DNA of 64,000 nt, from NCBI GenBank assembly GCA_009786125.1, contig WQTU01000136.1:88-64087 (forward strand). Reading direction: 5' to 3'. The translations under genes and the position numbers were made by a program. Below the pieces are notes generated by a model, which saw nothing but the letters and a program-made list of their open reading frames with translations, searched no databases and was not told the origin of the DNA. Origin of the DNA: Spirochaetota bacterium (lineage in GTDB: Bacteria; Spirochaetota; Spirochaetia; CADAEX01). Below are positions 5,975-62,150 of the stretch, piece by piece; position 1 is the first letter of the stretch; each line of letters begins with the position of its first letter.

Positions 5975-6062
5975 TGCGCCCCGCAACAAGTCCGGGATAA
6001 TAACATCCGTGTCGCGGCGCAGGACGCGGCCTGCTTCGCAATGCCGCAGATCCCGGGAGTTT
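5975..6062. repeat. GC-rich repeat module (family member E1)
   Basis: Starts 3 nt after the stop codon. 6023-6049 (GACGCGGCCTGCTTCGCAATGCCGCAG) matches 23597-23623 at 24 of 27 positions. 6004-6030 resembles the 22562/60434 module. Confidence 0.75.
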
Positions 6063-6166
6063 ATAGATAGGTTTATATTTGTTCCATGCCGCCATCCGGG
6101 GAAGAAAGTATTTTTTGAGCCTTTTTTTAATTGACATAATTTACCTGTCTATTTACAATCTTCCGC

Positions 6167-6924: not shown

Positions 6925-6984
6925 GTTTTCGCCGGAAACTCGCTCGAAACTTCGTTGCGACGTGCGTTCGCAGTGCTCTCGATG
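6925..6984. repeat. GC-rich segment loosely related to the repeat family (E2)
   Basis: 'TGCGACGTGCGTTCGCAGTGCTCTCGATGAA' resembles 'TCGCGACGTGCTTGCACGCTCGTGACCGAGCGAATGA' at 61790-61826. The similarity is partial. Confidence 0.4.
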
Positions 6985-7015
6985 AACTTCACGCGTAAGG
7001 TAAACGCGTGAAGTT
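6985..7015. terminator. Bidirectional hairpin between convergent genes (12-bp stem AACTTCACGCGT/ACGCGTGAAGTT, 7-nt loop)
   Basis: Perfect stem read from the sequence. It overlaps the stop codon of the minus-strand ATPase gene. Confidence 0.5.
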
Positions 7016-21268: not shown

Positions 21269-22540
21269 ATGTATTTTTCAAGGCCAATGAATCTAGGCAT
21301 TATTGGTTGTCCGGGGGCGGATCATTTTACGAATGATATTGTTCACAATCTTAAGAGATATTACAGCCGCAAACACCAGCAGCATATTGATCTTATATCA
21401 AAAACGTATGGAATTGAAAAAAATGAGATCGAAAGAAAGATCAATTTATTAAAAGATATTCAAAATGCCAATCTTTGGGAAGATCTCAATAGATATCCGG
21501 ATATTGAAAAATATCGAGTCCCTGAGTTTAAAGTTCCTGTAAAATATACAAGATTTGCCAATGGCGAATACAAAGCAGATATAAAAAAATCTGTAAGAGG
21601 AATGGATGTTTACATTGTCCAGGATGTTGAAAATCATTATGGCATAGATATAAATGAGGACGGCAAAGAACATAAACTCTCTGTAAACGACCATGTTTTT
21701 ATGCTGTTTGCGACAATTGATGCAGTAATACAATCCGGAGCAAGCTTTGTATCTGTTGTTGTGCCTGCTTATCCGTATGCGCGCCAGCATAAACGCAAAG
21801 GAAGAGAAGCTCTTACAGCAGCTCTTTTTGGAAGAATAATCGAAAACATGGGAGTCGCCCGAATAATCACTCTAGATATACACTCCAAAGAAATAGAAAA
21901 CTGTTTTAACAAGTGCAGAATGGAAGATCTTCATGCATCATATCAGATAATAAAAATGCTTTTTAACTTTATTGATGTAGAGAAATCAAATTTAGTTATT
22001 GTTTCGCCTGACTCAGGAGCTGTTGAAAGAAACAAGTTTTTTGCTGATAACCTCAAAAAACCGCTTGCCATGCTTTACAAAGAAAGAGACTATTCCAAAA
22101 TTTCCAGCGATGCAAAAGCAAGCAATATTACAGAGATGAAGCTGCTGGGAGATGTAAAGGGAAAAACAGTTTTTATGGCAGACGATATGGTAGGGACCGG
22201 CGGAACAATGATTGAAGCAATGCGGCGTCTTCGGGAACTTGGCGCAGAAAAAATTATTTGCGCAATAAGCCTTCCGCTTTTTACAGGCAATGCTATTGAA
22301 AATTTTGATAAAGCTTACAGAGACGGTTACTTCGATAAAGTAATAGGAACAAATGCCGTGTATCATACAGATGCGCTTTACGCAAAAGAGTGGTATGTAA
22401 GCGCCCCGATATCAAACCTCTTTGCCCGTGTTATTTCAAGATTGCATCAGCAGAGAACTTTAACTCCATTGATTGACAACAGCGAAATAATTCAGCGCCT
22501 GTTAAGCGACCCTCAAATTACTTTTTCTTATGGCTTATAA
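21269..22540 (+). CDS. prs: Ribose-phosphate pyrophosphokinase (long form)
   Basis: 'RFANGEY', 'PAYPYARQHKR', 'ITLDIHS', and PRPP-binding loop 'MADDMVGTGGT'. Confidence 0.85.
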   Translation: MYFSRPMNLGIIGCPGADHFTNDIVHNLKRYYSRKHQQHIDLISKTYGIEKNEIERKINLLKDIQNANLWEDLNRYPDIEKYRVPEFKVPVKYTRFANGEYKADIKKSVRGMDVYIVQDVENHYGIDINEDGKEHKLSVNDHVFMLFATIDAVIQSGASFVSVVVPAYPYARQHKRKGREALTAALFGRIIENMGVARIITLDIHSKEIENCFNKCRMEDLHASYQIIKMLFNFIDVEKSNLVIVSPDSGAVERNKFFADNLKKPLAMLYKERDYSKISSDAKASNITEMKLLGDVKGKTVFMADDMVGTGGTMIEAMRRLRELGAEKIICAISLPLFTGNAIENFDKAYRDGYFDKVIGTNAVYHTDALYAKEWYVSAPISNLFARVISRLHQQRTLTPLIDNSEIIQRLLSDPQITFSYGL

Positions 22541-24077
22541 AGTTCTTCCCGGCGCTTCATTGCGACATCTCTGTCGCTGCGCCGGGCGCAACGTCCATGT
22601 TGCAGGCGTTGATATTGGAACCTCTTCGATAAAAGCCGGTATAATAGATAAAAAAGGAATTCTTGCATCGTACCGGAAAATTCGCTACGAAGAAATTGGC
22701 GGAGATATTTATAACTGGAAAACTGATTTTTGGGTTAATTCCCTTAAAAAAGCGCTAAAAGAGCTCCCGCTGCTCGAAAAAGCAGAAGCAGTTGTTTTTA
22801 GCGGAAGCGGCCCTTCTGTGATACCTATATGCCGGGACGGCAATTATATGGCCGAGTCTCTATTGTGGCTCGATAATAAAAAAACTGATATAGCCGATAA
22901 CATTTCTTTTTTTCTTCCCAAAATAGCCTGGTATAAAGAAAACAGAAAAGATATTTATGCGAATGTTTCTTGCTTTCTTACGCTATCCGGCTTTTTTCCC
23001 TATTTGCTGACAGGAGAATTAAAAGAACCGCTTCCGAATAAAGAATTTACTCCTTATATATGGACAGAAGATTCCATAAAAAAAGCAGGGCTTGAGCTTA
23101 CTCTTTTTCCGCAATTTGTATTTGCCGGGAATCTTGTGGGTTATGTCTCCGAAAAAAGCAGCAGGGAATTTTATTTGCGAAAAGGGATTCCTGTGTTTGC
23201 CGGAGCCAGCGATTACCTTATGGCTCTTTTGGGAACAGGCGCGCTTTTTGAAGGAGCTGTCTGCGATAGGGCAGGAACTTCAGAGGGTATTAATTATTGC
23301 ACAAAAAAAAATGTAAAAGCAGATACCCTTAGAATACTACCGCATATAATAGAAGATTTTTATAATGTTTCCGGAGTAATTGATTCTTCCGGAAAAAATT
23401 TTAGCTGGTTTAAAAAAATATCAGGACAGGAAGAAAAGTCTTATTCAGAACTTATTGGGGAAATATCTAAGGTTATACACAATGACGACTCGCTCTATTT
23501 TTTACCCAGCGCTCGCTTTGCACGTGCTTTGCACGTTTCGCGGCGCGCCAAGGCACTGCGTCCGTACTCACAAGGGGCACTTTGCCACTGCGCCGGGACG
23601 CAACCTGCTTCGCAATGCTGCAGTCCGGATCTGGGAAGAAATTCTTTGTGGAAGTATAACAACGGCGCATTCACAGGGCTTGAGGTAATGCCGGAAGCAG
23701 GTGCTGCTGTTTTAAAAGCAATTGGTTTTTCTGTATGCGAGGTTATAAGAATTATGGAATCACATTCTCTTGCTGTGGAAGAAATAAGGCTGTCCGGCGG
23801 ACAGGCGGAAATCCCTTTGTGGAACCAGGTAAAAGCAGATATGACAGGAAAAAAACTGCTTGCCCCAGAGGTAAAGGATAGCGAGCTTATAGGGTGTGCG
23901 TGCGTTGCATTTACAGGACTTGGCGTATACAACTCCCTGACGCAAGCATCGCAGGAAATGGTGCGTATAAAAGATGTCTATACGCCTGATGCAAAAGCTT
24001 ATTCCGGGTTCTGTAAGCTCTTTGAAGATTATTCTGATATTTTGCGCAAGTTTGAGCTTTTTGCAAATTCTTTGTAG
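22530..24077 (+). CDS. FGGY-family carbohydrate kinase carrying two in-frame GC-rich repeat insertions
   Basis: 'GVDIGTSSIKAGI' N-terminal motif and C-terminal 'RLSGGQAEIPLWNQVKADMTG'. Start at ATG 22530 or TTG 22560. Confidence 0.8.
   Translation: MAYKVLPGASLRHLCRCAGRNVHVAGVDIGTSSIKAGIIDKKGILASYRKIRYEEIGGDIYNWKTDFWVNSLKKALKELPLLEKAEAVVFSGSGPSVIPICRDGNYMAESLLWLDNKKTDIADNISFFLPKIAWYKENRKDIYANVSCFLTLSGFFPYLLTGELKEPLPNKEFTPYIWTEDSIKKAGLELTLFPQFVFAGNLVGYVSEKSSREFYLRKGIPVFAGASDYLMALLGTGALFEGAVCDRAGTSEGINYCTKKNVKADTLRILPHIIEDFYNVSGVIDSSGKNFSWFKKISGQEEKSYSELIGEISKVIHNDDSLYFLPSARFARALHVSRRAKALRPYSQGALCHCAGTQPASQCCSPDLGRNSLWKYNNGAFTGLEVMPEAGAAVLKAIGFSVCEVIRIMESHSLAVEEIRLSGGQAEIPLWNQVKADMTGKKLLAPEVKDSELIGCACVAFTGLGVYNSLTQASQEMVRIKDVYTPDAKAYSGFCKLFEDYSDILRKFELFANSL
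22562..22608. repeat. GC-rich repeat module (E3) inside the FGGY kinase N-terminus
   Basis: The 47-mer GCGACATCTCTGTCGCTGCGCCGGGCGCAACGTCCATGTTGCAGGCG matches the reverse complement of 60434-60480 at 41 of 47 positions, counted by hand. Confidence 0.85.
23508..23633. repeat. GC-rich mosaic repeat (E4) inserted in frame in the FGGY kinase
   Basis: 23512-23537 resembles the 3' module of 61775-61897 (TCGCTTTGC.CGTGCTTTGCACGT). 23597-23623 matches 6023-6049 at 24 of 27 positions. It encodes about 41 atypical Cys/Arg/Ala-rich residues. Confidence 0.8.
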
Positions 24078-24179
24078 TCGGTGATTGGCCCCGGACGAAC
24101 TCTGGAGTGAAAAAAGTAATTTTTGGATATGGAAAAAAATTACGCCAAAATATATATTTTAAAATATTATATAATCTTA

Positions 24180-24208
24180 TTGACAAAAATTTTCAAATTT
24201 GTTACTCT
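24180..24208 (+). promoter_or_regulatory. Candidate sigma70 promoter (TTGACA-17-TACTCT) ahead of tRNA-Thr/rpmG
   Basis: Hexamers and 17-nt spacing read from the sequence. The tRNA starts at 24247. Confidence 0.4.
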
Positions 24209-24246
24209 TTGCTCTCGTTCTCCGTTCGACTTGTCGGGACAGGTAT

Positions 24247-24319
24247 GCCCTTGTAGCTCAGTCGGTAGAGCACCTCCATGGTAAGGAGGGGGTCTCCGGT
24301 TCAAGTCCGGTCGAGGGCT
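24247..24319 (+). tRNA. tRNA-Thr (GGT)
   Basis: GCCCTTG acceptor, anticodon stem-loop CCTCC-ATGGTAA-GGAGG, T-loop TTCAAGT. Confidence 0.9.
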
Positions 24320-24374
24320 CAAAATTACGAAATACCGGTTTGCCGGTTAATCCATAAACTTAGGGGATTCTAGT

Positions 24375-24551
24375 ATGGCATCTAAAAAAAAGGGAAATGT
24401 AGAGCTTATTGCTCTGCAGTGTACTGAATGTAAAAGAAGAAACTATACAACTTCTAAAAATAGAAAAAATTCACAGGCAAAGTTTGAATTTAGTAAGTTT
24501 TGCAAGTTTGACAGAAAGCACACTGTGCATAAAGAAACCAAAATTAAATAA
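24375..24551 (+). CDS. rpmG: 50S ribosomal protein L33
   Basis: Hand translation gives [58 protein letters not shown] (58 aa), below the ORF-track cutoff. Classical position before secE. Confidence 0.9.
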
Positions 24552-24557
24552 AGTTTT

Positions 24558-24631
24558 AGGTCAGTAGCTCCAACGGCTAGAGCGTCGGTCTCCAAAACCG
24601 AATGTTGCAGGTTCGAATCCTGCCTGGCCTG
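24558..24631 (+). tRNA. tRNA-Trp (CCA)
   Basis: AGGTCAG acceptor, anticodon stem-loop TCGGT-CTCCAAA-ACCGA, T-loop TTCGAAT. Confidence 0.9.
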
Positions 24632-24700
24632 TATAAATTTCAATATGTGCCGCAAGTCGATGTTTTGGAATCTGCTCGATATGCGGGAACAGGAGTTTTT

Positions 24701-24898
24701 ATGAAAAAAATGGGTAAAATTGCCAAAATTGGACTTTTTTTTAAAGAAAGCTACTCTGAGCTTAGAAAAGTTGTTTGGCCCAGCAGAGCTGATATTGCTG
24801 CATCTACGAAAGTAGTTATTGTTTCGGTAGTTATTATTTCTTTGTTTCTTGGCGCTGTAGATTTCTTGCTAATTATAGGAATGGATATTATTTTCTAG
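24701..24898 (+). CDS. secE: Preprotein translocase subunit SecE
   Basis: ATG 24701 follows AGGAG. 'ESYSELRKVVWPSR' plus a single C-terminal TM. The ORF-track start (24602) overlaps tRNA-Trp, so it was rejected. Confidence 0.85.
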   Translation: MKKMGKIAKIGLFFKESYSELRKVVWPSRADIAASTKVVIVSVVIISLFLGAVDFLLIIGMDIIF

Positions 24899-24931
24899 CC
24901 ATAGGGAAGGCAAACAGGGTATGGGATATAA

Positions 24932-25486
24932 ATGGTAAAAGGTTGGTATGTTCTTCACGCTTACTCAGGTTATGAGGGCAGAATCGAGAAACATATAAGA
25001 AAGTTGATGACAGATCAGAACTTCTCCGAATATATTATCGATATAAAAACTCCTTCAGAGGAAGTTGTTGAAATAAAAGATGGTAAAAAGAAAATCACTT
25101 CGAGAAAATTTTTACCCGGATATATATTGCTTGAAATGAATTTGCCTGATAAAGGCTGGAAAAATGTATGCGCAGAAATCAGGAAGATCAAGGGCGTAAC
25201 AGGTTTTGTTGGAGCTTTGGGGAGCTTAAAGCCAAGCCCAATTTCTCCCGACGAAATGAGAGCAATTTTACAGAAAACAGGAGAGCTTAAAGCTTCAAGG
25301 CACGTTAAATCTAAACAAGTATTTAATGTTGGGGAATCAGTCAAGATTATTGGCGGTCCGTTTGATACTTTTACAGGAAAAATTGATGAAGTTAATGCCG
25401 AAAAAGGAAAGTTAAGAGTAGTTGTAGGCATTTTTGGAAGAGCAACGCCTGTAGAAGTTGATTTTGCACAAGTTGAGCAGATATAA
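24932..25486 (+). CDS. nusG: Transcription termination/antitermination factor NusG
   Basis: 'WYVLHAYSGYE' NGN start and a KOW motif near the C-terminus. Follows secE. Confidence 0.95.
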   Translation: MVKGWYVLHAYSGYEGRIEKHIRKLMTDQNFSEYIIDIKTPSEEVVEIKDGKKKITSRKFLPGYILLEMNLPDKGWKNVCAEIRKIKGVTGFVGALGSLKPSPISPDEMRAILQKTGELKASRHVKSKQVFNVGESVKIIGGPFDTFTGKIDEVNAEKGKLRVVVGIFGRATPVEVDFAQVEQI

Positions 25487-25509
25487 AAGATAAAATTATT
25501 TTTTATTTA

Positions 25510-25676
25510 CCGATGAAGCGAGAACCGCGGACAAGCGAAGCTTGCACATGGTCGAGCGAGGAGGTAAACAAAAGGTTCGCGTGAGCGTACCTCGCTGCAA
25601 GCAGCGGAATCCGCGCCAAAGGCGCGGTGGGCGCAGGGCAAGCCCTGCGGTCGCTTTGCACGTAATACCTTTTATT
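25510..25676. repeat. Full-length GC-rich repeat element (E5), intergenic nusG-rplK
   Basis: The 5' end CCGATGAAGCGAG, the middle GAGCGAGGAGGTAAACAAAAGGTTCGCG, and the 3' end GGTCGCTTTGCACGTAATACCTTTTAT are shared with 61775-61897 and partly with 52216-52282 and 36969-37212. Contains several perfect 7-bp hairpins. Confidence 0.85.
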
Positions 25677-25830
25677 CTGATAATTATCAAAATAATTTGT
25701 TTTTTTCGGTAAGTTTTACCGTTTAACGATGGGAGTTTTCAAATGAGAGGTTGTCAATAATGTAGACACATTACTGACAAGCAACTTTAGCTTGGCGCAT
25801 TTTTGCAGCTTTTAAGCGAAAAAATGCTAT

Positions 25831-25876
25831 CCGTCCGCAAAGTCGGTTACAAGGTAACCGTGACTTTGTGAGACGG
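25831..25876 (+). promoter_or_regulatory. Long imperfect hairpin in the rplK 5' leader (candidate L11-operon autoregulatory structure)
   Basis: CCGTC-CG-CAAAGTCGGTTAC-AAG-GTAACCG-TG-ACTTTG-TGA-GACGG, about 45 nt upstream of the rplK ATG. Function inferred only. Confidence 0.3.
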
Positions 25877-25918
25877 GCACCCTCATGGGAAACGCTTTAC
25901 CACATTTTGGAGAAATAA

Positions 25919-26350
25919 ATGGCCAAAAAAAGAATAATAGCTGTTATTAAGCTACAGGTTCCGGCCGGAAAAGCGACTCCTGCGCCTCCTGTAGGACCCG
26001 CACTTGGTCCTCATGGCGTTAGCGCTCCGCAGTTTGTTCAGCAGTTTAATGACAGAACAAAAAATTTGGAGCCAGGGCTTACAATTCCGGTTGTTATTAC
26101 AGTTTATGGTGATAAAACATTTACGTTTATCACAAAAACACCTCCTGCTGCTGTTTTAATTAAAAAAGCATGCAGCATAGAAAAAGGTTCTGCAGAGCCG
26201 CACAAAGCAAAAGTTGCAAAAATGTCAAAAGCAGCTTTACAGAAAGTAGCGGAAACAAAAATGCCGGATTTAAATGCAAACGATGTTGATGCAGCAATGA
26301 AAATTATAGCAGGGACTGCAAGAAGCATGGGCGTGGAGGTGGAAGCATGA
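25919..26350 (+). CDS. rplK: 50S ribosomal protein L11
   Basis: '[24 protein letters not shown]' is a hallmark motif. Operon position fits. Confidence 0.97.
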
Positions 26351-27024
26351 AGAAGGGGAAAAAATACCTCGAAGCAGTAAAGCAATATGATAAAACAGCG
26401 TTCTATCCCTATGAAGAAGCTGTAAAGATTGTTAAAAAAGTTGCTTTTGCAAAATTTGATGAAACTGTTGAAGTTTCCATCAGGCTTAAGCTTAAAAAAG
26501 CTCAGGGCATAAGAGATACTCTTGTTCTGCCTCATCAGTTTACGGGCGAAAAGAAGATTCTTGTTTTTGCAAAAGGCGATAAAGCAGAAGAAGCAAAAGC
26601 TGCCGGAGCTGCGTACGTCGGAGATGTTGATCTTGTTGAAAAAATCAAAAACGGCTGGCTTGATTTTGATGTTGCTGTTGCTACGCCGGATATGATGAAA
26701 GATGTTGGCCGGCTTGGTCCTGTTCTTGGAAGAAGGGGGCTAATGCCTAACCCGAAAACGCAAACAGTTACTTTTAATATAAAAGAAGCGTTGTCTGAAC
26801 TTAAAAAGGGTCGTGTTGAATTCAGGTCTGACAAGGGAGGAGTTCTCCACCTTGCAGTAGGCAAAGTTTCAAGCGAAGTGAATCAGATTGTAGAAAATAT
26901 CAAAGCAGTTGTTGCTGAGGTTGAAAGAAAAAAACCGGCAGATACGAAGGGAGATTTTTTCCTTTCAGTTGCTGTTTCTTCTACAATGGGCCCAGGCGTT
27001 AAAGTAGATTTTAAGACTGCGTAA
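26347..27024 (+). CDS. rplA: 50S ribosomal protein L1
   Basis: L1-like sequence ('[11 protein letters not shown]', '[25 protein letters not shown]'). 4-nt overlap with rplK. Confidence 0.97.
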
Positions 27025-27036
27025 AAGGATTGAGAT

Positions 27037-27573
27037 ATGGCAGAATATGTAACAAAGGTACAGCCATCCAAAGTAGAGGCTGTTGCTGAGATAAAAGATA
27101 AAATTGAAAATGTAAATGATTTTGTTGTAACTGACTACAGGGGGCTTACTGTAGAGCAAATAACAGGTTTAAGAAGAAAATTAAGAGAATTAAGCACAGA
27201 GTACAAAGTTGTTAAAAACAGATATGCAAAAATTGCTTTTAACAATAAGGGTATTGCAGGTCTTGATAATCTTCTTGTTGGTCCTTCTGCGATTGCAATG
27301 GTAAAAGGCGATGCTAGTTCTGCGGTGAAAGCAATTTTTGATTTTACTAAAGAGGCGCCTGTGCAGGTAAAGGGCGGCTATATAGACGGCAATATATTTG
27401 ATATGCAGCAACTTGAGGCTTTTTCTAAGCTTCCTACGAAAATGGAGCTTATATCGAGCCTTATGGGTACTATGAAGGCGCCTATACAAAATCTTGTTTT
27501 TGTTCTTAATGCTCCTATGCAAAAGCTTGTTAGAACAATACAGGCTGTTGCTGACCAGAAGGAAGGAAAGTAA
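27037..27573 (+). CDS. rplJ: 50S ribosomal protein L10
   Basis: 'VVTDYRGLTVEQITGLRRKLRE' and operon position. Confidence 0.95.
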   Translation: MAEYVTKVQPSKVEAVAEIKDKIENVNDFVVTDYRGLTVEQITGLRRKLRELSTEYKVVKNRYAKIAFNNKGIAGLDNLLVGPSAIAMVKGDASSAVKAIFDFTKEAPVQVKGGYIDGNIFDMQQLEAFSKLPTKMELISSLMGTMKAPIQNLVFVLNAPMQKLVRTIQAVADQKEGK

Positions 27574-27670
27574 GCGCTTCGAAGTCCCCTTCGCTGGCGA
27601 AGAGGTGGCGACGAAGTCGGCGGGGTAGTGGAGCCCCGGTTAATTCGGTAAAAGGCAAAAGCCTTTGTTT
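27574..27670. repeat. GC-rich structured segment (E6), intergenic rplJ-rplL, loosely related to the repeat family
   Basis: Begins right after the rplJ stop. 'GGCGACGAAGTCGGCGGGG' resembles the family 5' motif CGACGAAGCGAGGG. Hairpins CTTCGC/GCGAAG, CGGGG/CCCCG and AAAGGC/GCCTTT. Confidence 0.45.
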
Positions 27671-27763
27671 GGGGAATAAAAAGTTTATACTTTTTACAAA
27701 TATTCAGCATTAGTCTTCTGTTTGCCATGCTACTGCTGAAATAAAAGATAAGGAGAAGATAAT

Positions 27764-28150
27764 ATGGCTAAAAAAGATGAAATTTTAGAAGCAATTGCTA
27801 ACATGACTGTTCTTGAAGTATCAGAACTCATTAAAGCAATGGAAGAAAAGTTTGGCGTTACAGCAGCAGCTCCGGTAGCTGTTGCAGCTCCTGCAGCAGC
27901 AGGCGGCGGCGCAGCAGCAGAAGCAGCTGAAGAACAAACTGAATTTGATGTTATTCTTGCGAAATTTGATGATTCCAAGAAAATTCCTATTATTAAGGAA
28001 GTAAGAGCAATTACAGGTCTTGGTCTTAAAGAGGCAAAGGATATGGTTGAGGGTGCTCCTCAAAAAGTTAAAGAAGGTGTTTCTAAAGAAGAAGCAAAAA
28101 CAATTAAAGAAAAGCTGGAAGCAGCTGGCGCAGTTGTTGAAGTTAAATAA
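27764..28150 (+). CDS. rplL: 50S ribosomal protein L7/L12
   Basis: '[26 protein letters not shown]', an Ala-rich hinge, and '[15 protein letters not shown]'. Confidence 0.97.
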
Positions 28151-36966: not shown

Positions 36967-36968
36967 TC

Positions 36969-37300: not shown

Positions 37301-37329
37301 TTGCATAAAAAACTAATTTTGTATATGAT
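37301..37329 (+). promoter_or_regulatory. Candidate sigma70 promoter TTGCAT-17-TATGAT for tuf/S10 operon
   Basis: Good hexamers with 17-nt spacing. Followed by an 11-bp AT-rich hairpin (37341-37382) in a ~250-nt leader. Confidence 0.4.
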
Positions 37330-37587
37330 TTAACTTGTATTTTGGTTAAAATCAAAATACATATAATTTGGTTTTAACCAAACCAATCATTCTGAGAGAT
37401 TTAGCGTCCGAATGTTATATCTCGTTATAAGGGTGGTAAGGTGGTGAGACTTTTTATCTTTTAATTTTTTTAAAATTTCAAGATCAGAAAATCATCATTT
37501 TACCTCATGTTATATAAAGTATAGTTTTATGGGTGTTTCCATGCCTATACAGTTGTTTAAAATGAATGTATTTAAAAGGAGAAGCTG

Positions 37588-38772
37588 ATGGCTAAAGAAA
37601 AGTTTGAACGGACTAAGCCGCACATTAATGTTGGTACTATTGGACATGTTGACCACGGAAAGACAACACTTACCGCTGCTCTTTCGATGTATTGTGCAAA
37701 GAAGCAGGGCGGAAAAGTTATGAAGTATGAGGATATTGATAATGCACCGGAAGAAAAAGCACGTGGTATAACAATTAACACAAGGCATGTTGAGTATGAA
37801 ACAGAAAACAGGCACTATGCGCATGTAGACTGTCCTGGGCACGCTGACTATATAAAGAACATGATTACAGGCGCTGCTCAGATGGATGGGGCAGTAATTC
37901 TTGTTGCCGGAGACTCAGGTCCCGAGCCGCAGACAAGAGAGCATATTCTTCTTGCAAAACAGGTAGGGGTTCCAAAGCTTGTTGTTTTTCTTAACAAGAT
38001 GGATATCGCAGATCCGGAACTTGTTGAGCTTGTAGAAGTGGAAGTGCAGGAACTTCTTGAATCTTATGGTTTTGATTCCAAATGTCCTATTATTAAAGGA
38101 TCTGCTTTTAAAGCTTTGTCAAACCCAGATGATCCGGAAGCTACGAAATGTATTCAGGAACTTCTTGATGCAATGGATACTTATTTTCCAATTCCGGAAA
38201 GAGCAATTGATAAGCCATTTCTTATGCCTGTAGAAGATGTTTTCTCTATTCAGGGCAGAGGTACTGTAGTAACAGGAAGAGTTGAAAAAGGTGTTGTGAA
38301 AGTAGGTGAAGAAATCGAAATTGTAGGTATCAGGGATACAAAAAAGACAACTTGTACGGGCGTTGAGATGTTTAACAAGATACTCGACCAGGGGCAGGCA
38401 GGCGATAATATAGGCGCTCTTCTTAGAGGTATTGATAAAAACGATGTTGAAAGAGGGCAAGTTCTTGCCAAGCCGGGTTCGATAAAGCCGCACAAAAAAT
38501 TCAAAGGCACTATTTATTGTCTTACAAAAGAAGAGGGCGGAAGGCATAATCCATTCTTTACAGGATACAGGCCCCAGTTCTATTTCAGAACTACAGACGT
38601 TACAGGGTCGGTAACGCTTCCTGCTGATAAGCAGATGGTTATGCCTGGCGATAACACAGAGCTTGATGTTGAGCTTATCAATCCAATTGCTATGGAAAAA
38701 GGATTAAGATTTGCTATTCGAGAAGGCGGAAGAACAGTTGCTTCAGGTCAAGTAATCGAGGTATTGGAATAA
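37588..38772 (+). CDS. tuf: Elongation factor Tu
   Basis: '[10 protein letters not shown]', 'DCPGHADY', 'NKMD'. 394 aa. Confidence 0.98.
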
Positions 38773-52206: not shown

Positions 52207-52215
52207 AGTTTATTT

Positions 52216-52282
52216 GCCGACGAAGCGAGGGATGTGTTAAACAAAAGGTTGCGAAAAAAGGTTACGAAGCATACCTTTTATA
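52216..52282. repeat. Short variant of the GC-rich repeat element (E8) after rplQ
   Basis: It keeps the 5' end GCCGACGAAGCGAGGG, the middle TAAACAAAAGGTTGCG and the 3' end CATACCTTTTAT of the 25510-25676 element. Most of the interior is missing. Confidence 0.75.
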
Positions 52283-52284
52283 TA

Positions 52285-52318
52285 TAAAAAAAGAGAGGTA
52301 AATACCTCTCTTTTTTTT
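52285..52318 (+). terminator. Rho-independent terminator of the ribosomal superoperon
   Basis: AGAGAGGT-AAAT-ACCTCTCT hairpin flanked by an A-run and T8. Confidence 0.8.
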
Positions 52319-52453
52319 GCTGATTTGCCGATAATTAATCAGTGTTATTTGCTGACTCCGGCTTTTGCCGGGATAAACTACTCCGCGAGAGTCGCAGGTA
52401 GTCATAGGTTAAAGACATCAATGGGTGTTTACAAGGAGATAAATAACCATTAA

Positions 52454-55366
52454 ATGACAATTATAAAAAAAGCTGCAATAAGTTTAGTTATTACTCTGAT
52501 CGTATTCTCAGCTTTCACAATAATATCTTTTTTTACTCTCTTTGATCTTATAGAATCAAGATTCTATAACAAAAAAGTGCTTACCGAAGTAGAAAACAGA
52601 ATTGAAAACATCATAATTGGGATAGAAGAATATAAAAATGATCGCATTGAAATACTTACTGCAGTTTCAAATGAAGCAGCCATAAGAAACAGTTTTCTTA
52701 TAAATCAAAGCAGAGAAGACATCTTTCAGAGAGAAAATATAATAAAATCCTTGATTGAGCGAAGAGTGGATTTTGATTTTATCAGAGTTATTGATGATGC
52801 CGGGAGAATCCACTACAGCAGCAATCCTATTGACCTGCAATCTGCTGACCCCACAAGAATATCTTATAGAATACTGGATGCGCAGTCTATTGAAAGATAT
52901 AGAGAAATTATCGAGCGCGCAGGTGATATCCCGGCCATTTTTTTTGACATTCAAGACCACAATCTGTTTGTAGCTTCTGTTTACAGCCATATAGGAATAA
53001 GAAGAGGCACAATTTTAGTATATCTTGCACCAAATGATTTAAGAAGTTTTCTTGCCCGAAAAAATGTTATTGAAAGAAATATTGTTATAAGGTATTTGGC
53101 TCATAATAAAATTGTTTTTAATATACTTGATGGCAACATCTCTATTCTGGAAGAACTAAAAGCTTATTGGACAGCCGGAGAAATAAGAAACCCTCATAAT
53201 CTCTATTCTGATGCTGCCGGAACTGCCTTTTCTGTTGTTACAAAAAGATGGGGCGATGGCTTTATAGGATATGTTATCCCCGATCATCTTATAAAAATTA
53301 ATGCTATTTATAAATATATTCTTCTCTTTTCGGTATTTTCAATTACATTTATACTTTCTTTCCTGCTGATGAATATAAGGCAGGATCAGGTAGTTGTTAT
53401 AGCTGACAGGGTAAAACGATTCCAGATAAATTTTCTTATTGAATATCTTGAAAATAAAAGCGAAGTCGAATGGAGAGTATGGAAAAAAGAACTGGAAAGC
53501 CGCAAAGAAGAATTACGCAGGGAATTTAAGAAAGGTATAAGAAGATTAGACGAAGATAAAGATAAGATTGTAAATGATCTTGTTGATAAAAGCTGGGACG
53601 AGATAATAAGCCTTCTCGCAGGACATCTGGAAAAAAAATCTGAAAGTAAAAATTTAGTTACAAATCTCCAGGTTGATAATATTGAAGAAATAATCAGAAA
53701 AATTATTGCAAGTGAAAATAATATACGAAGAAAAGATATCAATACTGTTTCAAGCCCGCAAGTTGTTGCACAAGTTGCCGAGGTCGCAGGCGCGGATGCG
53801 GAAGAAGAACTTGAGGAAATAGAGGAAGCGGATGAGGTCGCAGACGCGGTTGAGGAAGCAGAGGAACTCGAAGACGCGGACTTAGAAGAAATAGAGGAAG
53901 CGGAAGCGGTCGAAGTCGCAGTAGAAGAAGAGCTGGAAAGAATCGAAGAAGCTGCAAAAGTTTCAGTTAGGGAAGCAGACAAAGAATCTGCAACAGCAGA
54001 ACCTTTATTGGATGAAAATAAAAAATTCGAAGAGCTTATAACTACTTATAAAGATTATGGCGAAGAAATTGCAAACGCAAAAGAAATTCAAAATACTGTT
54101 GAAGAAATTGAAAGGACTATTGTTCCAATTACCGATGACCAAGATGAAGCAGATCTGAAAAAACTTACATCATTCAGAGATGGATTAGAAAACGATGATA
54201 CAAACATTCCTGAATTAATAGAAGAAGAACTTCTGGACGAAGAAGATATGGCAGATCTCGAAGATCTTGACATTGAAGAAGCAGAAATGCTGGAAGAAAA
54301 ATCAGTATATGAAAAAGTACCTAAAAAATATGTTTCTGAAACTGAAAAAATAGAAAACCTTGAAACAATAGGGGATTTTAAACCACTTGTTATAGACAGT
54401 GAATTCGAAGAGCTTGAAGTTCTTGAAAAAACTGAAGCAGATGAAGATGATGACGATAAAGCCAGAATAGTAGAATACATAAGAAATGACATAGTTGGTG
54501 TATATAAGCCGAATTATATGCCTGATTTTTTTTATTCCAGGAAAAAAACAGAAAAAAAAGAAGAAGATTTTGCAGGCGAAATTTCAGAGGAAAAAATCGA
54601 AACTTGCGGCAGCCCTAAAGCATCTTCTGCAAAACATCTTGAAACATTAAAAAAAGAAGGGCTTCTGGAAATATGGACAATAAAAGATGTTATTAAAATA
54701 ATAGAAGAAAAAAAAGAATCTCCTGTAATAGAAAAAGATGGAATTCTTAAAATAAGTGAAAATCTGTATAACGATGGCAATACTTCAAAAAATGCTGACG
54801 AAGATAACGAAATAGGTATTTCAGATATCTTTTTTGATGATGCAATAGATTTACCTGTCTTTTCAGATGCATCTGCAGATGCTCCTGTTGCTGACGAAAA
54901 ATATGCTGATATAAAAATTAGTGAAGAATATGGTTTCTATGCTGATATTTTCTATGATCACAATGAAAATAACCCTATTGAAATTATAAAAATTTTATTT
55001 GAAATAACAAAAAAAATGGGTTCTTCTTTCGGTGTTATATTAGTACAAAATGATAAAAAGTATTATCCGGAAGTATCTGTAGGGCTTTTTAACAAAGATT
55101 ACCCGGAACTACTTAGGATAAATAAAGATTCTTATCTTTTTAGAGAATTTCTTGCAGAGAGAAAAATTTTCTTTATAAAGACCGATATTACTGAACTAGA
55201 AGAGCTTAATACCAAATTTTCACCGAATGATCTTAAAAAAATCAATGGTCTTCTGTTTGCTCCAATGAGATATAAAGGAAAGCAAGCCTATTTTGTGGCT
55301 GCCCCGGACGCAAAAGACTTCTATCTGGATAGCGTTATACTAAAAGTTAAAAATTTCCAAAAATGA
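52454..55366 (+). CDS. Large membrane-anchored acidic protein: TM, extracytoplasmic domain, TM, Glu/Asp-rich region, and possible GAF-like C-terminus
   Basis: 970 aa. TM segments near aa 8-30 and ~285-305. Extreme acidic low-complexity region aa ~435-700. The C-terminal ~170 aa looks globular, and the GAF-like guess is weak. Confidence 0.75.
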   Translation: MTIIKKAAISLVITLIVFSAFTIISFFTLFDLIESRFYNKKVLTEVENRIENIIIGIEEYKNDRIEILTAVSNEAAIRNSFLINQSREDIFQRENIIKSLIERRVDFDFIRVIDDAGRIHYSSNPIDLQSADPTRISYRILDAQSIERYREIIERAGDIPAIFFDIQDHNLFVASVYSHIGIRRGTILVYLAPNDLRSFLARKNVIERNIVIRYLAHNKIVFNILDGNISILEELKAYWTAGEIRNPHNLYSDAAGTAFSVVTKRWGDGFIGYVIPDHLIKINAIYKYILLFSVFSITFILSFLLMNIRQDQVVVIADRVKRFQINFLIEYLENKSEVEWRVWKKELESRKEELRREFKKGIRRLDEDKDKIVNDLVDKSWDEIISLLAGHLEKKSESKNLVTNLQVDNIEEIIRKIIASENNIRRKDINTVSSPQVVAQVAEVAGADAEEELEEIEEADEVADAVEEAEELEDADLEEIEEAEAVEVAVEEELERIEEAAKVSVREADKESATAEPLLDENKKFEELITTYKDYGEEIANAKEIQNTVEEIERTIVPITDDQDEADLKKLTSFRDGLENDDTNIPELIEEELLDEEDMADLEDLDIEEAEMLEEKSVYEKVPKKYVSETEKIENLETIGDFKPLVIDSEFEELEVLEKTEADEDDDDKARIVEYIRNDIVGVYKPNYMPDFFYSRKKTEKKEEDFAGEISEEKIETCGSPKASSAKHLETLKKEGLLEIWTIKDVIKIIEEKKESPVIEKDGILKISENLYNDGNTSKNADEDNEIGISDIFFDDAIDLPVFSDASADAPVADEKYADIKISEEYGFYADIFYDHNENNPIEIIKILFEITKKMGSSFGVILVQNDKKYYPEVSVGLFNKDYPELLRINKDSYLFREFLAERKIFFIKTDITELEELNTKFSPNDLKKINGLLFAPMRYKGKQAYFVAAPDAKDFYLDSVILKVKNFQK
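53775..53950 (+). repeat. Imperfect tandem coding repeats (period ~72 nt) encoding EEIEEA(D/E)-type acidic units
   Basis: GAGGAAATAGAGGAAGCGGATGAGGTCGCAGACGCGG (53813-53849) versus GAAGAAATAGAGGAAGCGGAAGCGGTCGAAGTCGCAG (53885-53921). Confidence 0.7.
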
Positions 55367-58747: not shown

Positions 58748-61396
58748 TTATAGGTTACATTTTCCCGCAAGACTTGATGCAGTTTTTACAGCTTCAACGC
58801 CATCCTTCGAGTAAGCTGCGCCTATTGATTCTGCCCACTCTTTTGTAACAACTGCTCCGCCAACCATAAAGCTGGCTGTTATGCCTTCTTTTTTTGCAAG
58901 TTCAATAACTTCCGGCATTTTTACCATTGTTGTTGTCATAAGCGCAGAGAGCGCAATTATGTCCGGCTCAAACTCTTTTGCATTTTTTATAATCTCGTCT
59001 GCTGGTACAGATTTACCTAGGTCTTTTACATCAAAGCCATAATTGCGCAGCATGAGTATTACAATATTTTTTCCAATGTCGTGTATATCTCCCTCGACAG
59101 TTGCAAAAAGTATTTTGCCTTTTGCACCGGCATTCTTGTCTTCGAGTTTGGGCTCAAGGACAGTGAAGCCTTTTTTCATTGTCTCTGCGCTTGCAATGAG
59201 CTGCGGCAAAAAATACTTTTTCTTGTCGTAAAGCTCGCCCACATGCATAATTGCGGGAATCATTATTTTTTCGAGAATATCTTTTGGCGCTGTGTTGAGC
59301 TCAAGTGTTTTCTGCACATGAGTTATTATGTCATCGCGGTTGCCGGAAACAATGCAGTCGAAGACTGGGCTTGTTGCTGCGTTTGCACCAGCGCTTGCGT
59401 CTGCGTCTGCGGCTGTGTCTGCACTTGCGTCCGGGCTTGCGCCAGCGCCTTTCGCAGCAGGGTGGGGCATGGGCTGTATGCTGTTGGGCATAATGCCGGG
59501 GTCCGGGTTTGCCGAAGCAAATTTAAGATACGCCAGCGCATCAACATCTTTGCCGGTTAGCAGGTCGGATGCATGTTTTGCCCACATTAGCTCGATTTCT
59601 CCGGGATTTGCAATTACATGGGTCATTCCATACGCAGCAGCCATTGAAAGAAAAGCAGAGTTTATTCTTTTTCTCTCCGGCAGCCCGAAAGAAACATTAG
59701 AAAGCCCGGCTAACGAAGAAAAGCCGTTTTCTGCAGCCCATTTTATTGTTTTAAGTGTTTCCAGCGGAGCCTGCTGGTTCGATGAGACAGTCATAACAAG
59801 CCCGTCTATAATTATATCGTTTTTTGTAAAGCCCAGTTTTTCTGCCTCATTATAAACTTCTTTTATAATTTCGATTCTTCGTTCTGCTGTCTCGGGGAGT
59901 TCGTTGTCCGCAAGAGGCAGCAGAACGAACATTGCGCCGTATTTTGCCGCAACAGGCAGGAGTTTTTCGATTTTTTCTTTTTCCCCGGATATTGAATTTA
60001 TTAAAGCTCTTCCGGGATATTTTCTGAGAGCTGCTTCTACTACTTCTGGCGACGCAGAATCTATTACAAGCGGCAGTTTGCACCAAGGCGCAAGCATGTC
60101 GATTATTTTAATTACTGTATTTTTTTCGTTAATGCCGGGCATCCCTGCGTTTATGTCTAACATGCTTGCGCCGGAGGCTTCCTGTTCCATTGCCATTTTG
60201 CGTACCAGCGACAGTTTGCCCTCAAGCATTTCTGATTGAAGCCTTTTCTTGCCCGTAGGATTTATGCGCTCGCCGATAACCTGCAGCCCTGACTTTTTGT
60301 TTACGATAAGGGCTTCGGTTGCGCTCGAAAGTGCAACAATATCTTTGGCAAAAAAGCAGTTCTTCCTGGTTTTGACCTTGACTTCGCCGCGGGCTTCGGT
60401 TTGGGTTTGCGGAGCTGCGGCTTGGGGTAAAAGCGGCTGCAACACGGATGTTGCGCTCGGCGCAGCGACATGGATGTCGCAATAAGGCTCCGGTTTGTAT
60501 TGCGCAAGCTCTTTTGCAAGCAGTTTTATGTGCTGCGGAGTTGTGCCGCAGCAGCCGCCCATAAGATTGATTCCCGCGCTTGCAAAAGATTCTGCGAAGG
60601 ATGCAAATTCTTCCGGTCCCATTGGAAAAATGGTTTTGCCGGATTCTATTCTTGGCATTCCGGCATTTGGCTTTGCAACCAGAGGAACTTTCGAAATAGG
60701 TTTAAGACGTTCTATTATTTTTAGCATTTCTGCAGGGCCGGAAGAGCAATTGCAGCCAACAGCATCTGCTCCAAGGCTTTGAAGCGTTATTAGCGCAGCT
60801 TCCGGCGATGTTCCGTTAAGCGTTCTGCCTTCCGGCTCATAAGTCATTGTTACTATCGTAAAAGCATCAGTGAGTTCTTTAACGGCGATTAACGCTGCAC
60901 GCGCTTCCTGAATATCCATCTGCGTTTCTATTACAAAAAGATCGCAGCCGCCGTCCAGCAATCCTCTTGCCTGACGCTTAAACATTTTTACAGCATCTTC
61001 AAACCTGATTTCCCCAAAAGGCTCGATAAAATGCCCTATGGGTCCAATATCGCCTGCAACAAGCGTATTTTCTCCTCCTGCTTTTTTTGCCGCCTGCGCA
61101 AGAATCGAATTTATATTTTCTACATCGTCCCGGCCGTATAACGCAAGTTTATAAAAATTCGCCCCAAATGTGCATGTATAAATTATGTCCGACCCTACCT
61201 CGGAATAGCTTTTATAAATTGCCCTTTGGATTTCCTTGTTCTCGCTTGCCCATATTTCCGGGCACACTCCTGCGGGCATTCCTTTTTTCTGGAGTTCTGT
61301 TCCTGTTGCTCCGTCGAGCACAAGAATTTTGTTTTTAAGCAATTCCGAAATTACTTTTTTATCTGTCATATATTCCCTTCTTAGTTTATTAAACAA
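58748..61396 (-). CDS. metH: Cobalamin-dependent methionine synthase lacking the AdoMet activation domain
   Basis: 882 aa. Hcy-methyltransferase N-terminus ('LDGATGTEL', 'GGCCGTTP'), pterin-binding domain, and B12-binding domain ('GDIHDIGKNIV'). Two GC-rich low-complexity linkers. Confidence 0.92.
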   Translation of the reverse strand: MFNKLRREYMTDKKVISELLKNKILVLDGATGTELQKKGMPAGVCPEIWASENKEIQRAIYKSYSEVGSDIIYTCTFGANFYKLALYGRDDVENINSILAQAAKKAGGENTLVAGDIGPIGHFIEPFGEIRFEDAVKMFKRQARGLLDGGCDLFVIETQMDIQEARAALIAVKELTDAFTIVTMTYEPEGRTLNGTSPEAALITLQSLGADAVGCNCSSGPAEMLKIIERLKPISKVPLVAKPNAGMPRIESGKTIFPMGPEEFASFAESFASAGINLMGGCCGTTPQHIKLLAKELAQYKPEPYCDIHVAAPSATSVLQPLLPQAAAPQTQTEARGEVKVKTRKNCFFAKDIVALSSATEALIVNKKSGLQVIGERINPTGKKRLQSEMLEGKLSLVRKMAMEQEASGASMLDINAGMPGINEKNTVIKIIDMLAPWCKLPLVIDSASPEVVEAALRKYPGRALINSISGEKEKIEKLLPVAAKYGAMFVLLPLADNELPETAERRIEIIKEVYNEAEKLGFTKNDIIIDGLVMTVSSNQQAPLETLKTIKWAAENGFSSLAGLSNVSFGLPERKRINSAFLSMAAAYGMTHVIANPGEIELMWAKHASDLLTGKDVDALAYLKFASANPDPGIMPNSIQPMPHPAAKGAGASPDASADTAADADASAGANAATSPVFDCIVSGNRDDIITHVQKTLELNTAPKDILEKIMIPAIMHVGELYDKKKYFLPQLIASAETMKKGFTVLEPKLEDKNAGAKGKILFATVEGDIHDIGKNIVILMLRNYGFDVKDLGKSVPADEIIKNAKEFEPDIIALSALMTTTMVKMPEVIELAKKEGITASFMVGGAVVTKEWAESIGAAYSKDGVEAVKTASSLAGKCNL
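60434..60480. repeat. GC-rich repeat module inside the metH Hcy/pterin linker
   Basis: The reverse complement GCGACATCCATGTCGCTGCGCCGAGCGCAACATCCGTGTTGCAGCCG matches 22562-22608 at 41 of 47 positions. It is translated in a different frame from that copy. Confidence 0.85.
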
Positions 61397-62150
61397 TTCC
61401 TGTTAATGCAATAACTGATTTTTGCGGTATAAGCAAAAAGCTTTCTGTTATATTAACTTCTATTTTTTTCATTTCAAGCAAATTGTAAAAGATTTTTTGT
61501 GTTTCAAGCGATAGGTCTCCGTATCCGGGAGAAAATCTTTTGGAAAAAAGCTTTTCTGATTTTCTTATAAGCTCTTTGCTGTAAAGAGACATAATGTAAT
61601 CCAGCCCCCTGTCTGCAATTTCGCCTGCTGCTGCGTCAAGAACAACAGCTTTGGTCATGTTTTCCTTCTGTTCTTTCTCTATAAAATCCGCTATTTCTTT
61701 GCCGCATGTTATTCCCATCAGCAGAATTTTATTCGCTCCGGAGATGAATTTGCATAATGAGCTGCTTATTATTTCCGAATGAAGCGAGTGTCGCGACGTG
61801 CTTGCACGCTCGTGACCGAGCGAATGAGGAAACAAAGGGTCGCGCAGGGCTCTGCCTTGCGGTCGCTTTGCGCGTGCTTTGCACGTAATACCCTTTATCT
61901 CAATTTTTTCTGATGGGGCTGCCTGACTTGCAGCAGGATATATCAGAATTTTATCCTGATCCGCGACTTCAAAATTACTTTCCAGCATTACGCCTTTTAA
62001 GTTTACAAGAGAGGCTGTCTCATCAATCCATGCTACAATCTCTTTTCTGCTTGATTCAGCAAGTTCTGTTTCTTTTTGTCTATACCCCAGCCGAGAGAAA
62101 ATAACTCTATAATCTGGCTTGGGCAATATATTATTGATAAACCTGAGCAT
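61389..62150 (-). CDS. Stand-alone methionine synthase activation-domain protein with in-frame GC-rich element
   Basis: The C-terminal 'RFSPGYGDLSLETQKIFYNLL' is typical of Met_synt_B12. 8-nt overlap with metH. Carries a 41-codon foreign-looking insert. Confidence 0.8.
   Translation of the reverse strand: MLRFINNILPKPDYRVIFSRLGYRQKETELAESSRKEIVAWIDETASLVNLKGVMLESNFEVADQDKILIYPAASQAAPSEKIEIKGITCKARAKRPQGRALRDPLFPHSLGHERASTSRHSLHSEIISSSLCKFISGANKILLMGITCGKEIADFIEKEQKENMTKAVVLDAAAGEIADRGLDYIMSLYSKELIRKSEKLFSKRFSPGYGDLSLETQKIFYNLLEMKKIEVNITESFLLIPQKSVIALTGIV
61775..61897. repeat. GC-rich repeat element (E9), 123 nt, in frame within the activation-domain gene
   Basis: CCGAATGAAGCGAG...GGTCGCTTTGCGCGTGCTTTGCACGTAATACCCTTTAT. 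Both termini and the central AAACAAAGGGTCGCG are shared with 25510-25676. Confidence 0.85.

Follow-up and report, generated by a model that had tools for sequence, protein, structure and literature searches.

INTRODUCTION

Small repeats that enter open reading frames (ORFs) in-frame are best known from Rickettsia, and their occurrence in free-living gut spirochaetes broadens the phenomenon. Here, we analyze a 64,000-nucleotide stretch of DNA from a Spirochaetota bacterium (GenBank assembly GCA_009786125.1, contig WQTU01000136.1, positions 88 to 64,087), hereafter called the window, in which GC-rich, hairpin-forming repeats lie between and inside core genes. These repeats very likely constitute a mobile, non-autonomous family; probably, they form a family specific to this lineage, made up of small mobile DNA repeats that are non-coding and non-autonomous and are moved in trans as a folded strand. 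The family is apparently undescribed, and the kind to which it belongs, that of small structured non-autonomous repeats, is already known.

In their behavior, the repeats resemble the Rickettsia palindromic elements (RPE), which are short hairpin repeats without a transposase of their own, found between genes and in-frame in unrelated housekeeping ORFs, where they are translated as added stretches of peptide (PMC10969869). Here too, predicted reading frames are kept open, with insertions of 19, 40, 43, 42, and 31 amino acids (aa) that are absent from homologues. The likeness is one of behavior, no sequence relation being known. RPE hosts are obligate intracellular alpha-proteobacteria, whereas those of the present elements are free-living gut spirochaetes; moreover, the elements described here have a TTAT junction, two domains, and nested modules, and the fraction of their copies that lie in ORFs appears lower.

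In Bacillus, the bcr1 repeat is reported to be bounded by TTTAT and co-transcribed with its neighbors. The bcr repeats resemble the present family as interspersed structured repeats of ~100 to 400 bp in an AT-rich genome, with no transposase and with a TTTAT motif at their ends (PMC6542083). They occur in B. cereus sensu lato only, and they are compared here by description, not by sequence; unlike them, the elements of the window are GC-rich, mosaic, and inserted in ORFs as well. Yeast mitochondrial GC clusters are another case of GC-rich palindromic mobile modules in an AT-rich genome, including in-frame copies in coding sequence. However, they are organellar and eukaryotic, use other target motifs, and have no two-domain core unit.

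Insertion sequences (IS) of the IS200/IS605 type have no terminal inverted repeats, produce no target-site duplication, and insert 3' of a fixed tetra- or pentanucleotide; they require hairpins at both ends, and palindrome-associated transposable elements (PATEs), which consist of the ends only, derive from them (PMC7290912). PATEs, the repetitive extragenic palindromes (REP/REPIN), and the repeats of the window all lack terminal inverted repeats and use a fixed tetranucleotide, 3' of which they insert, and all have same-strand hairpins near both ends, of which the shape rather than the sequence is conserved; REP/REPIN elements are, in addition, short imperfect palindromes present in many copies. 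In contrast to these systems, no cognate TnpA or REP-associated tyrosine transposase (RAYT) appears in the gene tables of ~200 kb of DNA, the left hairpin starts at the junction, TTAT stands on both sides, and the copies are not confined to extragenic space and show no clear replication-strand bias over the few independent sites. The pneumococcal repeats BOX, RUP, and SPRITE share with the present family a modular build, clustering, and insertion into one another, and SPRITE resembles a rho-independent terminator (PMC10969869). Their sequences are unrelated, however; BOX modules stand in tandem and are not nested in hairpin loops, and RUP has terminal inverted repeats and a TA target.

A census found many transposable elements of the miniature inverted-repeat type (MITEs) in Spirochaetes genomes in general (PMC11602168), and our literature search returned no description of repeats such as these in treponemes. 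Membership in MITE, REP, PATE, RPE, or bcr1 cannot be claimed. The elements are not classical MITEs because terminal inverted repeats are absent, and not REPs because they also occupy coding sequence and no RAYT was seen. A PATE origin is unproven because a TnpA was not seen and the hairpins are arranged otherwise than in IS608, and the host lineages differ from those of RPE and bcr1.

RESULTS

Related GC-rich segments in the window

A first-pass annotation, made from the sequence alone, had listed ten GC-rich segments and a possible fragment at 52405-52425 as sharing recombining modules. We compared these segments with the whole window by sensitive self-BLAST and built a covariance model (R1) from the copies, with E<0.01 as the threshold for calling a copy. 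With their revised boundaries, the segments are as follows.

5975-6062, + strand: GC-rich hairpin module cluster, starting 2 nt after the stop codon of a DUF4954 gene (3801-5972)
6925-6984, + strand: doubtful member, GC-rich, after the acyl-ACP thioesterase stop codon and just before a convergent terminator hairpin (6985-7015)
22547-22603, + strand: H module, with three short hairpins (GCGACATC..TGTCGC, TGCGCC..GCGCA, and CAAC..GTTG), in the N-terminus of an FGGY kinase
23510-23629, + strand: composite in which the long-form 3' motif (GCTCGCTTTGCACGTGCTTTGCACGT) is combined with the GACGC..CCTGCTTCGCAATGC.GCAG module, inside the same FGGY kinase (boundaries uncertain by ~2 nt)
25507-25675, + strand: long-form core in the nusG-rplK spacer, with TTAT at 25503-25506 and ending in TTTTAT
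27574-27670, + strand: possible degenerate relative directly after the rplJ stop codon, containing GGCGACGAAG and ending in A-tract, hairpin, and T-tract
36969-37054, + strand: short-form core, 2 nt after the rpsG stop codon (model R1, 75.3 bits, E = 5e-17)
37055-37245, + strand: nested double element (model match at 37091-37181/37183, 34-42 bits)
52214-52281, + strand: internally deleted core that follows the rplQ stop codon (52206) and precedes the native terminator (52286-52317), preceded by TTAT (21.8 bits, E = 0.005)
60363-60491, - strand: MetH insertion starting with an H module, 129 nt or 43 codons, in the called gene 58748-61369 (boundaries uncertain by ~4 nt)
61773-61898, + strand: long-form core of 126 nt, antisense in a Met_synt_B12-like ORF (61389-62150, - strand; 68.6 bits)

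Self-BLAST paired 22549-22608 with the reverse complement of 60434-60493 (85% over 60 nt, E = 4e-13), and 25511-25565 with both 36970-37023 (E = 5e-7) and 37055-37094. Further pairs were 25631-25675 with 61842-61898, 23509-23536 with 61859-61886 (93% identical), and 6010-6049 with 23583-23623 (80% identical). A 25-nt degenerate pattern taken from the shared core had two matches in the window and none in 100 shuffles. Model R1 matched 25503-25577, 36963-37035, 61769-61841, 37091-37181, and 52210-52250, all on the + strand, with E values from 1e-21 to 5e-3. By self-BLAST and the covariance model, the proposed relationship stands far above chance for 8 of the 11 segments and is weak for 6925-6984, which has no match within the window by self-BLAST and whose sole match is 36 nt (86%) in a gyrA-gyrB spacer (L032 4698-4730). 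It is unsupported for the remaining two: 27574-27670 has no detectable similarity to any copy and no model match and is not tied to the family, and the similarity of the 52405-52425 fragment, 65% in one comparison and absent from the self-BLAST of the window, seems due to chance. All five of the shared motif modules described in the annotation are present. Its boundaries needed revision, as the MetH insertion spans 129 nt (~60363-60491) instead of 47 nt, the rpsG cluster extends to 37245, and the exact core units are 25507-25675, 52214-52281, and 61773-61898.

The repeats are real. Independently assembled Logan contigs (run SRR5247064) are identical to the window across both insertions in the FGGY kinase, which removes the doubt, raised at the outset, that the segments might be artefacts or chimeras. 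Two of these contigs, L002 (window 21932-25544) and L019 (window 2408-6014), stop inside elements, at 25544 and 6014, as multi-copy repeats cause assemblers to do, and the JGI contig behind L016 likewise stops inside an element.

The family is not limited to the window, as further copies are present on other contigs and in related metagenome-assembled genomes (MAGs). A 45-nt stretch of 5975-6062 is 95.6% identical to positions 1892-1936 of another termite-gut contig (L013), where it is nested in a core element. The H module has copies at L016 9778-9821 and L020 6232-6288, and 23510-23629 also matches L013 8499-8525.

A conserved two-domain fold with nested modules

The basic unit is 70 to 190 nt long, starts directly 3' of TTAT, ends in (T)TTAT, and has no terminal inverted repeats, as the annotation had stated; its 5' end (TTCCGAATGAAGCG or TCGCCGACGAAGCG) and its reverse-complemented 3' end (ATAAAGGGTATTACG or ATAAAAGGTATGC) are not complementary. 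Alignment of the window copies with those of relatives gave a canonical unit of ~95 nt, in which TTAT is followed by TCGCCGACGAAGCGAGGGTCGCGGGCAAGCAGAGCTTGCACATGACCGAGCGAGGAGGCGAACAAAAGGTTGCGGTAGCATACCTTTTAT. RNAalifold, applied to eight copies, folds the 5' part (domain 1) into a 65-nt irregular hairpin that consists, in order, of helix P1, three GA/GA doublets separated by 1 to 2 Watson-Crick pairs, helix P2, and an apical hairpin. The 3' part (domain 2) folds as an A-tract, a hairpin, and a T-tract, with the end TTTTAT(TTT), and looks like an intrinsic terminator in this predicted fold. The two-domain fold appears in every full copy.

Next, covariation was evaluated in 16 copies aligned to the model. 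Standard pairs occupy 95.9% of the cells, and 15 of the 19 pairs have changed on both sides; sliding the partners by 1 to 3 columns gives at most 4, and none of 500 shuffles reaches the observed values. This alignment is fitted to the model and hence favors structure; in an independent MAFFT/RNAalifold alignment, 9 of the 19 pairs are compensated. Read in register, GA-C-GAA-GC-GA-G and C-GA-GC-GA-G-GA, the two conserved "loop" strands, lie opposite one another and form the three GA/GA doublets, which we interpret as putative sheared tandem G-A pairs, and one G-U pair is invariant in domain 1. Because of the doublets and the invariant G-U pair, the fold is specific to the strand as written. The DNA folding energy differs slightly between the top and bottom strands (-21.7 versus -18.7 kcal/mol).

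The mosaic look of the family results from GC-rich hairpin modules that nest in the loops of both domains. Hairpins nested in the domain 2 loop make the difference between the short form and the long forms, which are found at 25507-25675, 61773-61898, L016 9657-9822, and L032 6883-7085; in the first of these, they lie in the loop of the 3' hairpin, and the element scores 93.6 bits with the covariance model (E = 9e-22). In the apical loop of domain 1, an H module and a module of the 5975 type are nested at L013 1740-2000 and L016 9739-9822. A complete inner copy inside an outer copy is the arrangement shared by 37055-37245 and L016 5030-5260; the former opens with the 5' half of a core, after which come a complete inner copy, belonging to the CCRCCGAATAAGTGAG subfamily, a 3' half that is degenerate, and finally a hairpin rich in A/T whose end is TTTAT. 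Solo modules are found as well, both in spacers and in ORFs. GC-rich hairpins with 6- to 9-bp stems recur inside the elements and elsewhere on other contigs; their changes are compensatory, as from GCAAC..GTTGC to GCGGC..GCCGC, and hairpin pairing is also kept through double changes from GCAACGTCCATGTTGC to GCGGCGTCCATGCCGC at L020 6232-6288. The two-hairpin architecture with its covariation, the nesting of modules in hairpin loops, and the in-frame nature of the copies in ORFs go beyond what the annotation had described.

Other hairpins of the window were also observed. At 63179-63199, convergent ORFs are separated by a GC hairpin with a perfect 9-bp stem (CGCAGGGCAACTTGCCCTGCG); it is of the same type as that at 25632-25649 in the long-form element and had not been listed before. 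The hairpin module CCCGAACTTGTTCGGGG recurs beside core copies and H modules, at L020 2023-2039 and 6319-6335, at L013 3102-3118, and, as a variant, at 5980-5996 of the window. An AT-rich hairpin, GCTGATTTATTC..GAATAAAT, is often its neighbor and is also found at 2394-2423.

Insertion next to TTAT

Empty and filled sites allowed us to define two junctions exactly. In the Met_synt_B12-like ORF, the empty site of the L027 orthologue reads ...CTTGTTAT joined directly to CTCGATTTT, and the filled site of the window reads ...CTTATTAT[TTCCGAATG...ACCCTTTAT]CTCAATTTT, where the inner brackets enclose the element, whose end is also given as CCCTTTAT. Upstream of rplK, the empty sites read AACGCTTT followed by ACCACA (window) and AACGCTAT followed by ACCACA (L021), and the filled sites in L003, L004, and L005 read AACGTTAT[TCGCTGACG...CCTTTTAT]ACCACA. 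At both junctions, insertion is directly 3' of (T/C)TAT, and the element end is TTAT. The flanks TTATTT and CTTTTAT, pointed out in the annotation, reflect this TTAT insertion rule, which is real: the left flank is TTAT in ~10 of 13 readable copies, for a background of 0.008 per position, and the right end is (T)TTAT in ~12 of 15. In the window, 61773-61898 has TTAT at 61769-61772 and itself ends in TTAT, and 52214-52281 has TTAT in front and TTTTAT at its end; 36969-37054 is without the usual left flank.

In-frame copies inside proteins

The FGGY kinase (22530-24077) has 515 aa, compared with 459 aa in its closest homologues. Its two extra segments, one N-terminal (19 aa) and one internal (40 aa), are in-frame and unique to the window, being absent from the ten closest homologous proteins and from the DNA of L003 and L005, both of which have a clean 57-nt gap at the 22547-22603 site. 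MetH has 43 extra residues in the linker between the homocysteine-binding and pterin-binding domains, with Pfam domains on either side, and this insertion is absent from 11 aligned homologues and from the DNA of L027 and L029. The H modules of the two genes are 85% identical as DNA and are read in different frames; therefore, the H module is a DNA repeat and not a protein domain. The Met_synt_B12-like ORF, which corresponds to a MetH-activation protein, has 253 aa versus 208 aa in the L027 orthologue, and the core element within it is read through antisense and in-frame, over 42 codons.

Two more cases were found with concatenated six-frame element peptides in a six-frame word-index search. 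RecF, encoded with gyrBA-dnaA-dnaN on another contig of the same assembly, has a 31-aa insertion between residues that are adjacent, by alignment, in PDB 5Z67. A uracil-DNA glycosylase (UDG) on another contig takes its last 25 residues from an element. An exhaustive search with the 42-aa in-frame peptide returned only the window's own protein and unrelated tandem-repeat proteins. Altogether, six in-frame insertions keep their predicted reading frames open, and those in RecF, MetH, the sugar kinase, and UDG represent natural insertion experiments. All three of the core copies in ORFs are antisense, and the in-ORF core subfamily has just two of its six frames open, one in each sense.

Other insertions were seen in the same proteins. 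In the Met_synt_B12-like protein of L029 (8822-9601), the loop that carries the element in the window is occupied by another sequence, a tandem repeat of 51 aa, (DDVVGNQ)n, and the FGGY homologue P0008 / L026 carries an unrelated 33-aa insertion 13 residues downstream of that of the window; both loops appear to be insertion hot spots. A second MetH linker (window 59365-59519, - strand) is 65% GC, of Ala/Asp/Pro-rich low complexity, and hypervariable in length among homologues, and it has no similarity to the repeat family.

Distribution among relatives

The window is part of the 122.6-kb metagenome contig ENA ERZ27257345 k141_4582885, has a GC content of 39.9%, and encodes prs, the FGGY kinase, rpmG-secE-nusG, rplKAJL, rpoBC, rpsLG, tuf, the S10/spc/alpha operons, and metH. 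The nearest genomes in the species-representative collection are three Spirochaetaceae MAGs (L003, L004, and L005) from the soil-feeding higher termite Labiotermes labralis, for which Lab288 is a sample code (PMC7024585). Their L10 proteins are 88 to 89% identical to that of the window, compared with ~50% in the more distant L006 and L007. All repeat copies come from termite-gut Spirochaetaceae contigs.

In ~161 kb of the clade, 18 distinct core copies passed the model threshold, including one on the same contig beyond the window (L020 2050-2123) and others on the same-assembly contig L032. No core copy was found in the loci of five other relatives (92.8 kb, filters off). Two of the copy-free relatives, L027 and L029, are about as close to the window as L003-L005, so the density is uneven between genomes. 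The window's own contig, with ~79 kb of unbiased sequence, has six sites, or about one per 13 kb, and extrapolation would give a few hundred copies per genome.

As seen at orthologous loci, presence and absence differ between the window and its relatives, a polymorphism that the annotation had raised as a check. Five window sites are empty in L003/L005, and the extra DNA of the window relative to these genomes comprises 22547-22603 (57 nt), ~23510-23629 (120 nt), 27574-27670, and 36969-37245. The whole 36969-37245 block is absent from L005; at the 27574-27670 site, L005 has 9 nt, and L003 and L004 hold unrelated DNA. In the nusG-rplK spacer, the window copy and the short-form copy of the relatives occupy different positions. 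Relatives also have copies that the window does not, in the tRNA-Trp/secE interval and just upstream of rplK. Such differences between close relatives could provide strain-tracking markers in termite guts. The elements also break termite-gut MAG assemblies, inflate protein lengths, and create long spurious antisense ORFs (e.g., 36899-37306), and annotation pipelines should therefore mask them.

A pattern scan of metagenomes gave eight loci, two of them chance matches in high-GC DNA, with a pattern that is probably too strict for measuring abundance. The core pattern had no match in viral contigs, and BLAST searches of plasmids and phages, including Bacillus replicons, returned no match. Two matches of the H-module pattern in phage DNA of ~60% GC were judged to be chance, as their flanks have no similarity.

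At Rfam 15 gathering thresholds, a scan of the whole window detected five tRNAs only. Scans of 25400-27800 and 36900-37650 at E<=10 gave weak, noise-level matches to snoRNA and miRNA models and to a tmRNA fragment, none coherent with an element. The sequence family, which the annotation had not recognized, thus matches no Rfam family, and identities as a ribozyme, a riboswitch, or a known "Termite" or "TD" motif were dropped. Integron attC sites and CRISPR were also dropped, as the copies lie in core operons, with no GTTRRRY core site and no arrays.

Three observations concern the surroundings of the elements. The long-form element at L032 6883-7085 (- strand), on a contig of the same assembly, occupies the spacer between gyrB and dnaA; its position coincides exactly with the minimum of the GC skew and falls in the region presumed to contain the replication origin. 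Upstream of rplK, a second, different repeat family is represented by ~150 nt (window ~25745-25895) inserted in a hairpin loop, and the insert shares a 37- to 45-nt module with the rplJ-rplL spacer of L003 and L004. The interrupted hairpin, GGGAGTTTYCC..GGGAAACG, is intact in L003, L004, L005, L021, L024, and L007 and may be a conserved rplK leader motif. Furthermore, fusA does not lie between rpsG and tuf (window 36966-37588), which breaks the usual str-operon order; the spacer holds the element cluster and an AT-rich leader instead.

DISCUSSION

Proposed movement of a folded strand in trans

The REP- or RPE-like selfish or structural element suggested by the first-pass annotation is supported by these results. 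In the reading that we favor, the element would be moved in trans while one strand, the top strand as written, is folded. The agent would most likely be an HUH/Y1 enzyme, either like the TnpA of IS200/IS605 or of the RAYT type, that works 3' of TTAT by "peel and paste"; this single-strand route is a tentative proposal, short of an expectation. Copies would persist where they do little harm, either between a stop codon and the native terminator or in protein loops and linkers, and might survive as harmless or mildly useful terminators. Within ORFs, core copies may survive only antisense, with one frame open and the terminator-like end pointing away. The TTAT rule and the strand-specific fold provide a concrete handle for finding the mobilizing enzyme. 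If an IS200/IS605-type agent is involved, the target-adjacent motif of its TnpB or IscB partner should be the same as this insertion motif.

Several observations weigh against this reading. As the annotation had noted, no transposase lies nearby, and the gene tables of ~200 kb contain no Y1/HUH transposase, TnpB, RAYT, or other transposase. In IS608, a spacer of ~19 nt separates the left hairpin from the junction, whereas the left hairpin of the present elements abuts it. Where GC-rich modules stand alone in ORFs, TTAT is missing from the junctions, and these modules may have spread differently, for instance when copies recombined or a template switch occurred between them. Relative to replication, orientation is mixed over few independent sites: every window copy at 25-52 kb follows the strand of positive GC skew (leading-strand sequence), and the other strand carries the RecF copy, which lies right of oriC. 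A simple consensus terminator scan did not flag domain 2, because its loops exceed 8 nt or its stems are AT-rich. Finally, only two core sites offer clean empty/filled pairs and the relatives are 75 to 89% identical at the protein level; hence, gain rather than loss rests on parsimony.

TTAT on both sides, found at both exact junctions, is equally what a 4-bp target-site duplication would give. The elements could thus be MITE-type derivatives of a DDE-transposase IS that duplicates TTAT, their hairpins being incidental or serving expression or stability; most of the small bacterial repeats that have target duplications are of this type (PMC10969869). We consider this rather unlikely, given that there are no terminal inverted repeats and no IS nearby and that a folded single strand is indicated by the strong covariation and by the GA/GA and G-U features, which are strand-specific. 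In addition, the terminal TT of the right-hand TTAT pairs, in the predicted fold, with the A-tract inside the conserved domain 2 stem and looks like part of the element, not of the target. The copies with a variant left flank, TGAT (L033) and TTAC (L032), both still end in TTTAT, which gives a hint in the same direction. Because of this stem pairing and of these two copies, we lean toward the right TTAT being the element's own.

Domain 1 might instead be the recognition structure of an undescribed mobilization system with neither the IS200/IS605 geometry nor the nature of a DDE MITE, which seems unlikely. In such a system, the three GA/GA doublets and the G-U pair would be recognized by an enzyme acting in trans, or else a nucleic acid that is catalytic or binds protein would be involved, a portable terminator cassette would be pasted 3' of TTAT, and the hairpin loops would act as landing pads for further GC hairpins. 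New peptide segments could then be written into essential proteins.

The intergenic copies in operons are mostly sense and directly follow stop codons, domain 2 is terminator-like, and the structure is conserved by covariation, all of which could suggest host-useful RNA modules (portable terminators, 3'-end stabilizers, or cis-regulatory RNA) spread by selection and recombination, for which SPRITE and BOX are precedents (PMC10969869). As an explanation of the family this is quite unlikely, as copies are antisense in RecF, UDG, the MetH-activation ORF, and the intergenic site L020 2050, the gene contexts are unrelated, the junctions lie precisely next to TTAT, positions differ within the same spacer between close relatives, and no Rfam family corresponds. 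Usefulness to the host is nevertheless compatible with mobility.

Mobility through an RNA intermediate, with domain 1 as a ribozyme or a binding site for reverse transcriptase (RT), would fit the conserved structure of domain 1 with its invariant purine-rich loop strands, and the terminator-like 3' end would define the transcript. It is highly improbable, since no ribozyme or intron family matched even at E<=10, no promoter or RT gene lies nearby, there is no poly-A or 3'-truncation pattern, and host genes do not transcribe the antisense copies in the folding sense. Chance similarity between GC-rich low-complexity stretches, or an assembly or chimera artefact, is negligible: although 40-nt islands of at least 62.5% GC are common in the window (75, mostly coding, so that listing them as a detector gave no discrimination) and two of the listed segments are without support, E values go down to 1e-13 with BLAST and 1e-21 with the covariance model, shuffles never matched the degenerate pattern, copies are present in independent assemblies and samples, and the copy-bearing ORFs remain in frame.

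Other features of the window

A 34-nt inverted repeat (1109-1142 and 1989-2022, 91% complementary) flanks two genes of the - strand, one for a PIN toxin (1286-1663) and one for a PhdYeFM antitoxin (1653-1910), and the whole could be a mobile toxin-antitoxin cassette. Two tandem coding repeats, both in-frame, were also seen. One, at 53759-53930, is acidic, has an irregular spacing of 12 to 54 nt, and lies in a 970-aa protein with a TP_0593_N domain; the other, of ~102 to 105 nt, occupies positions 1-355 in the ORF at the window start.

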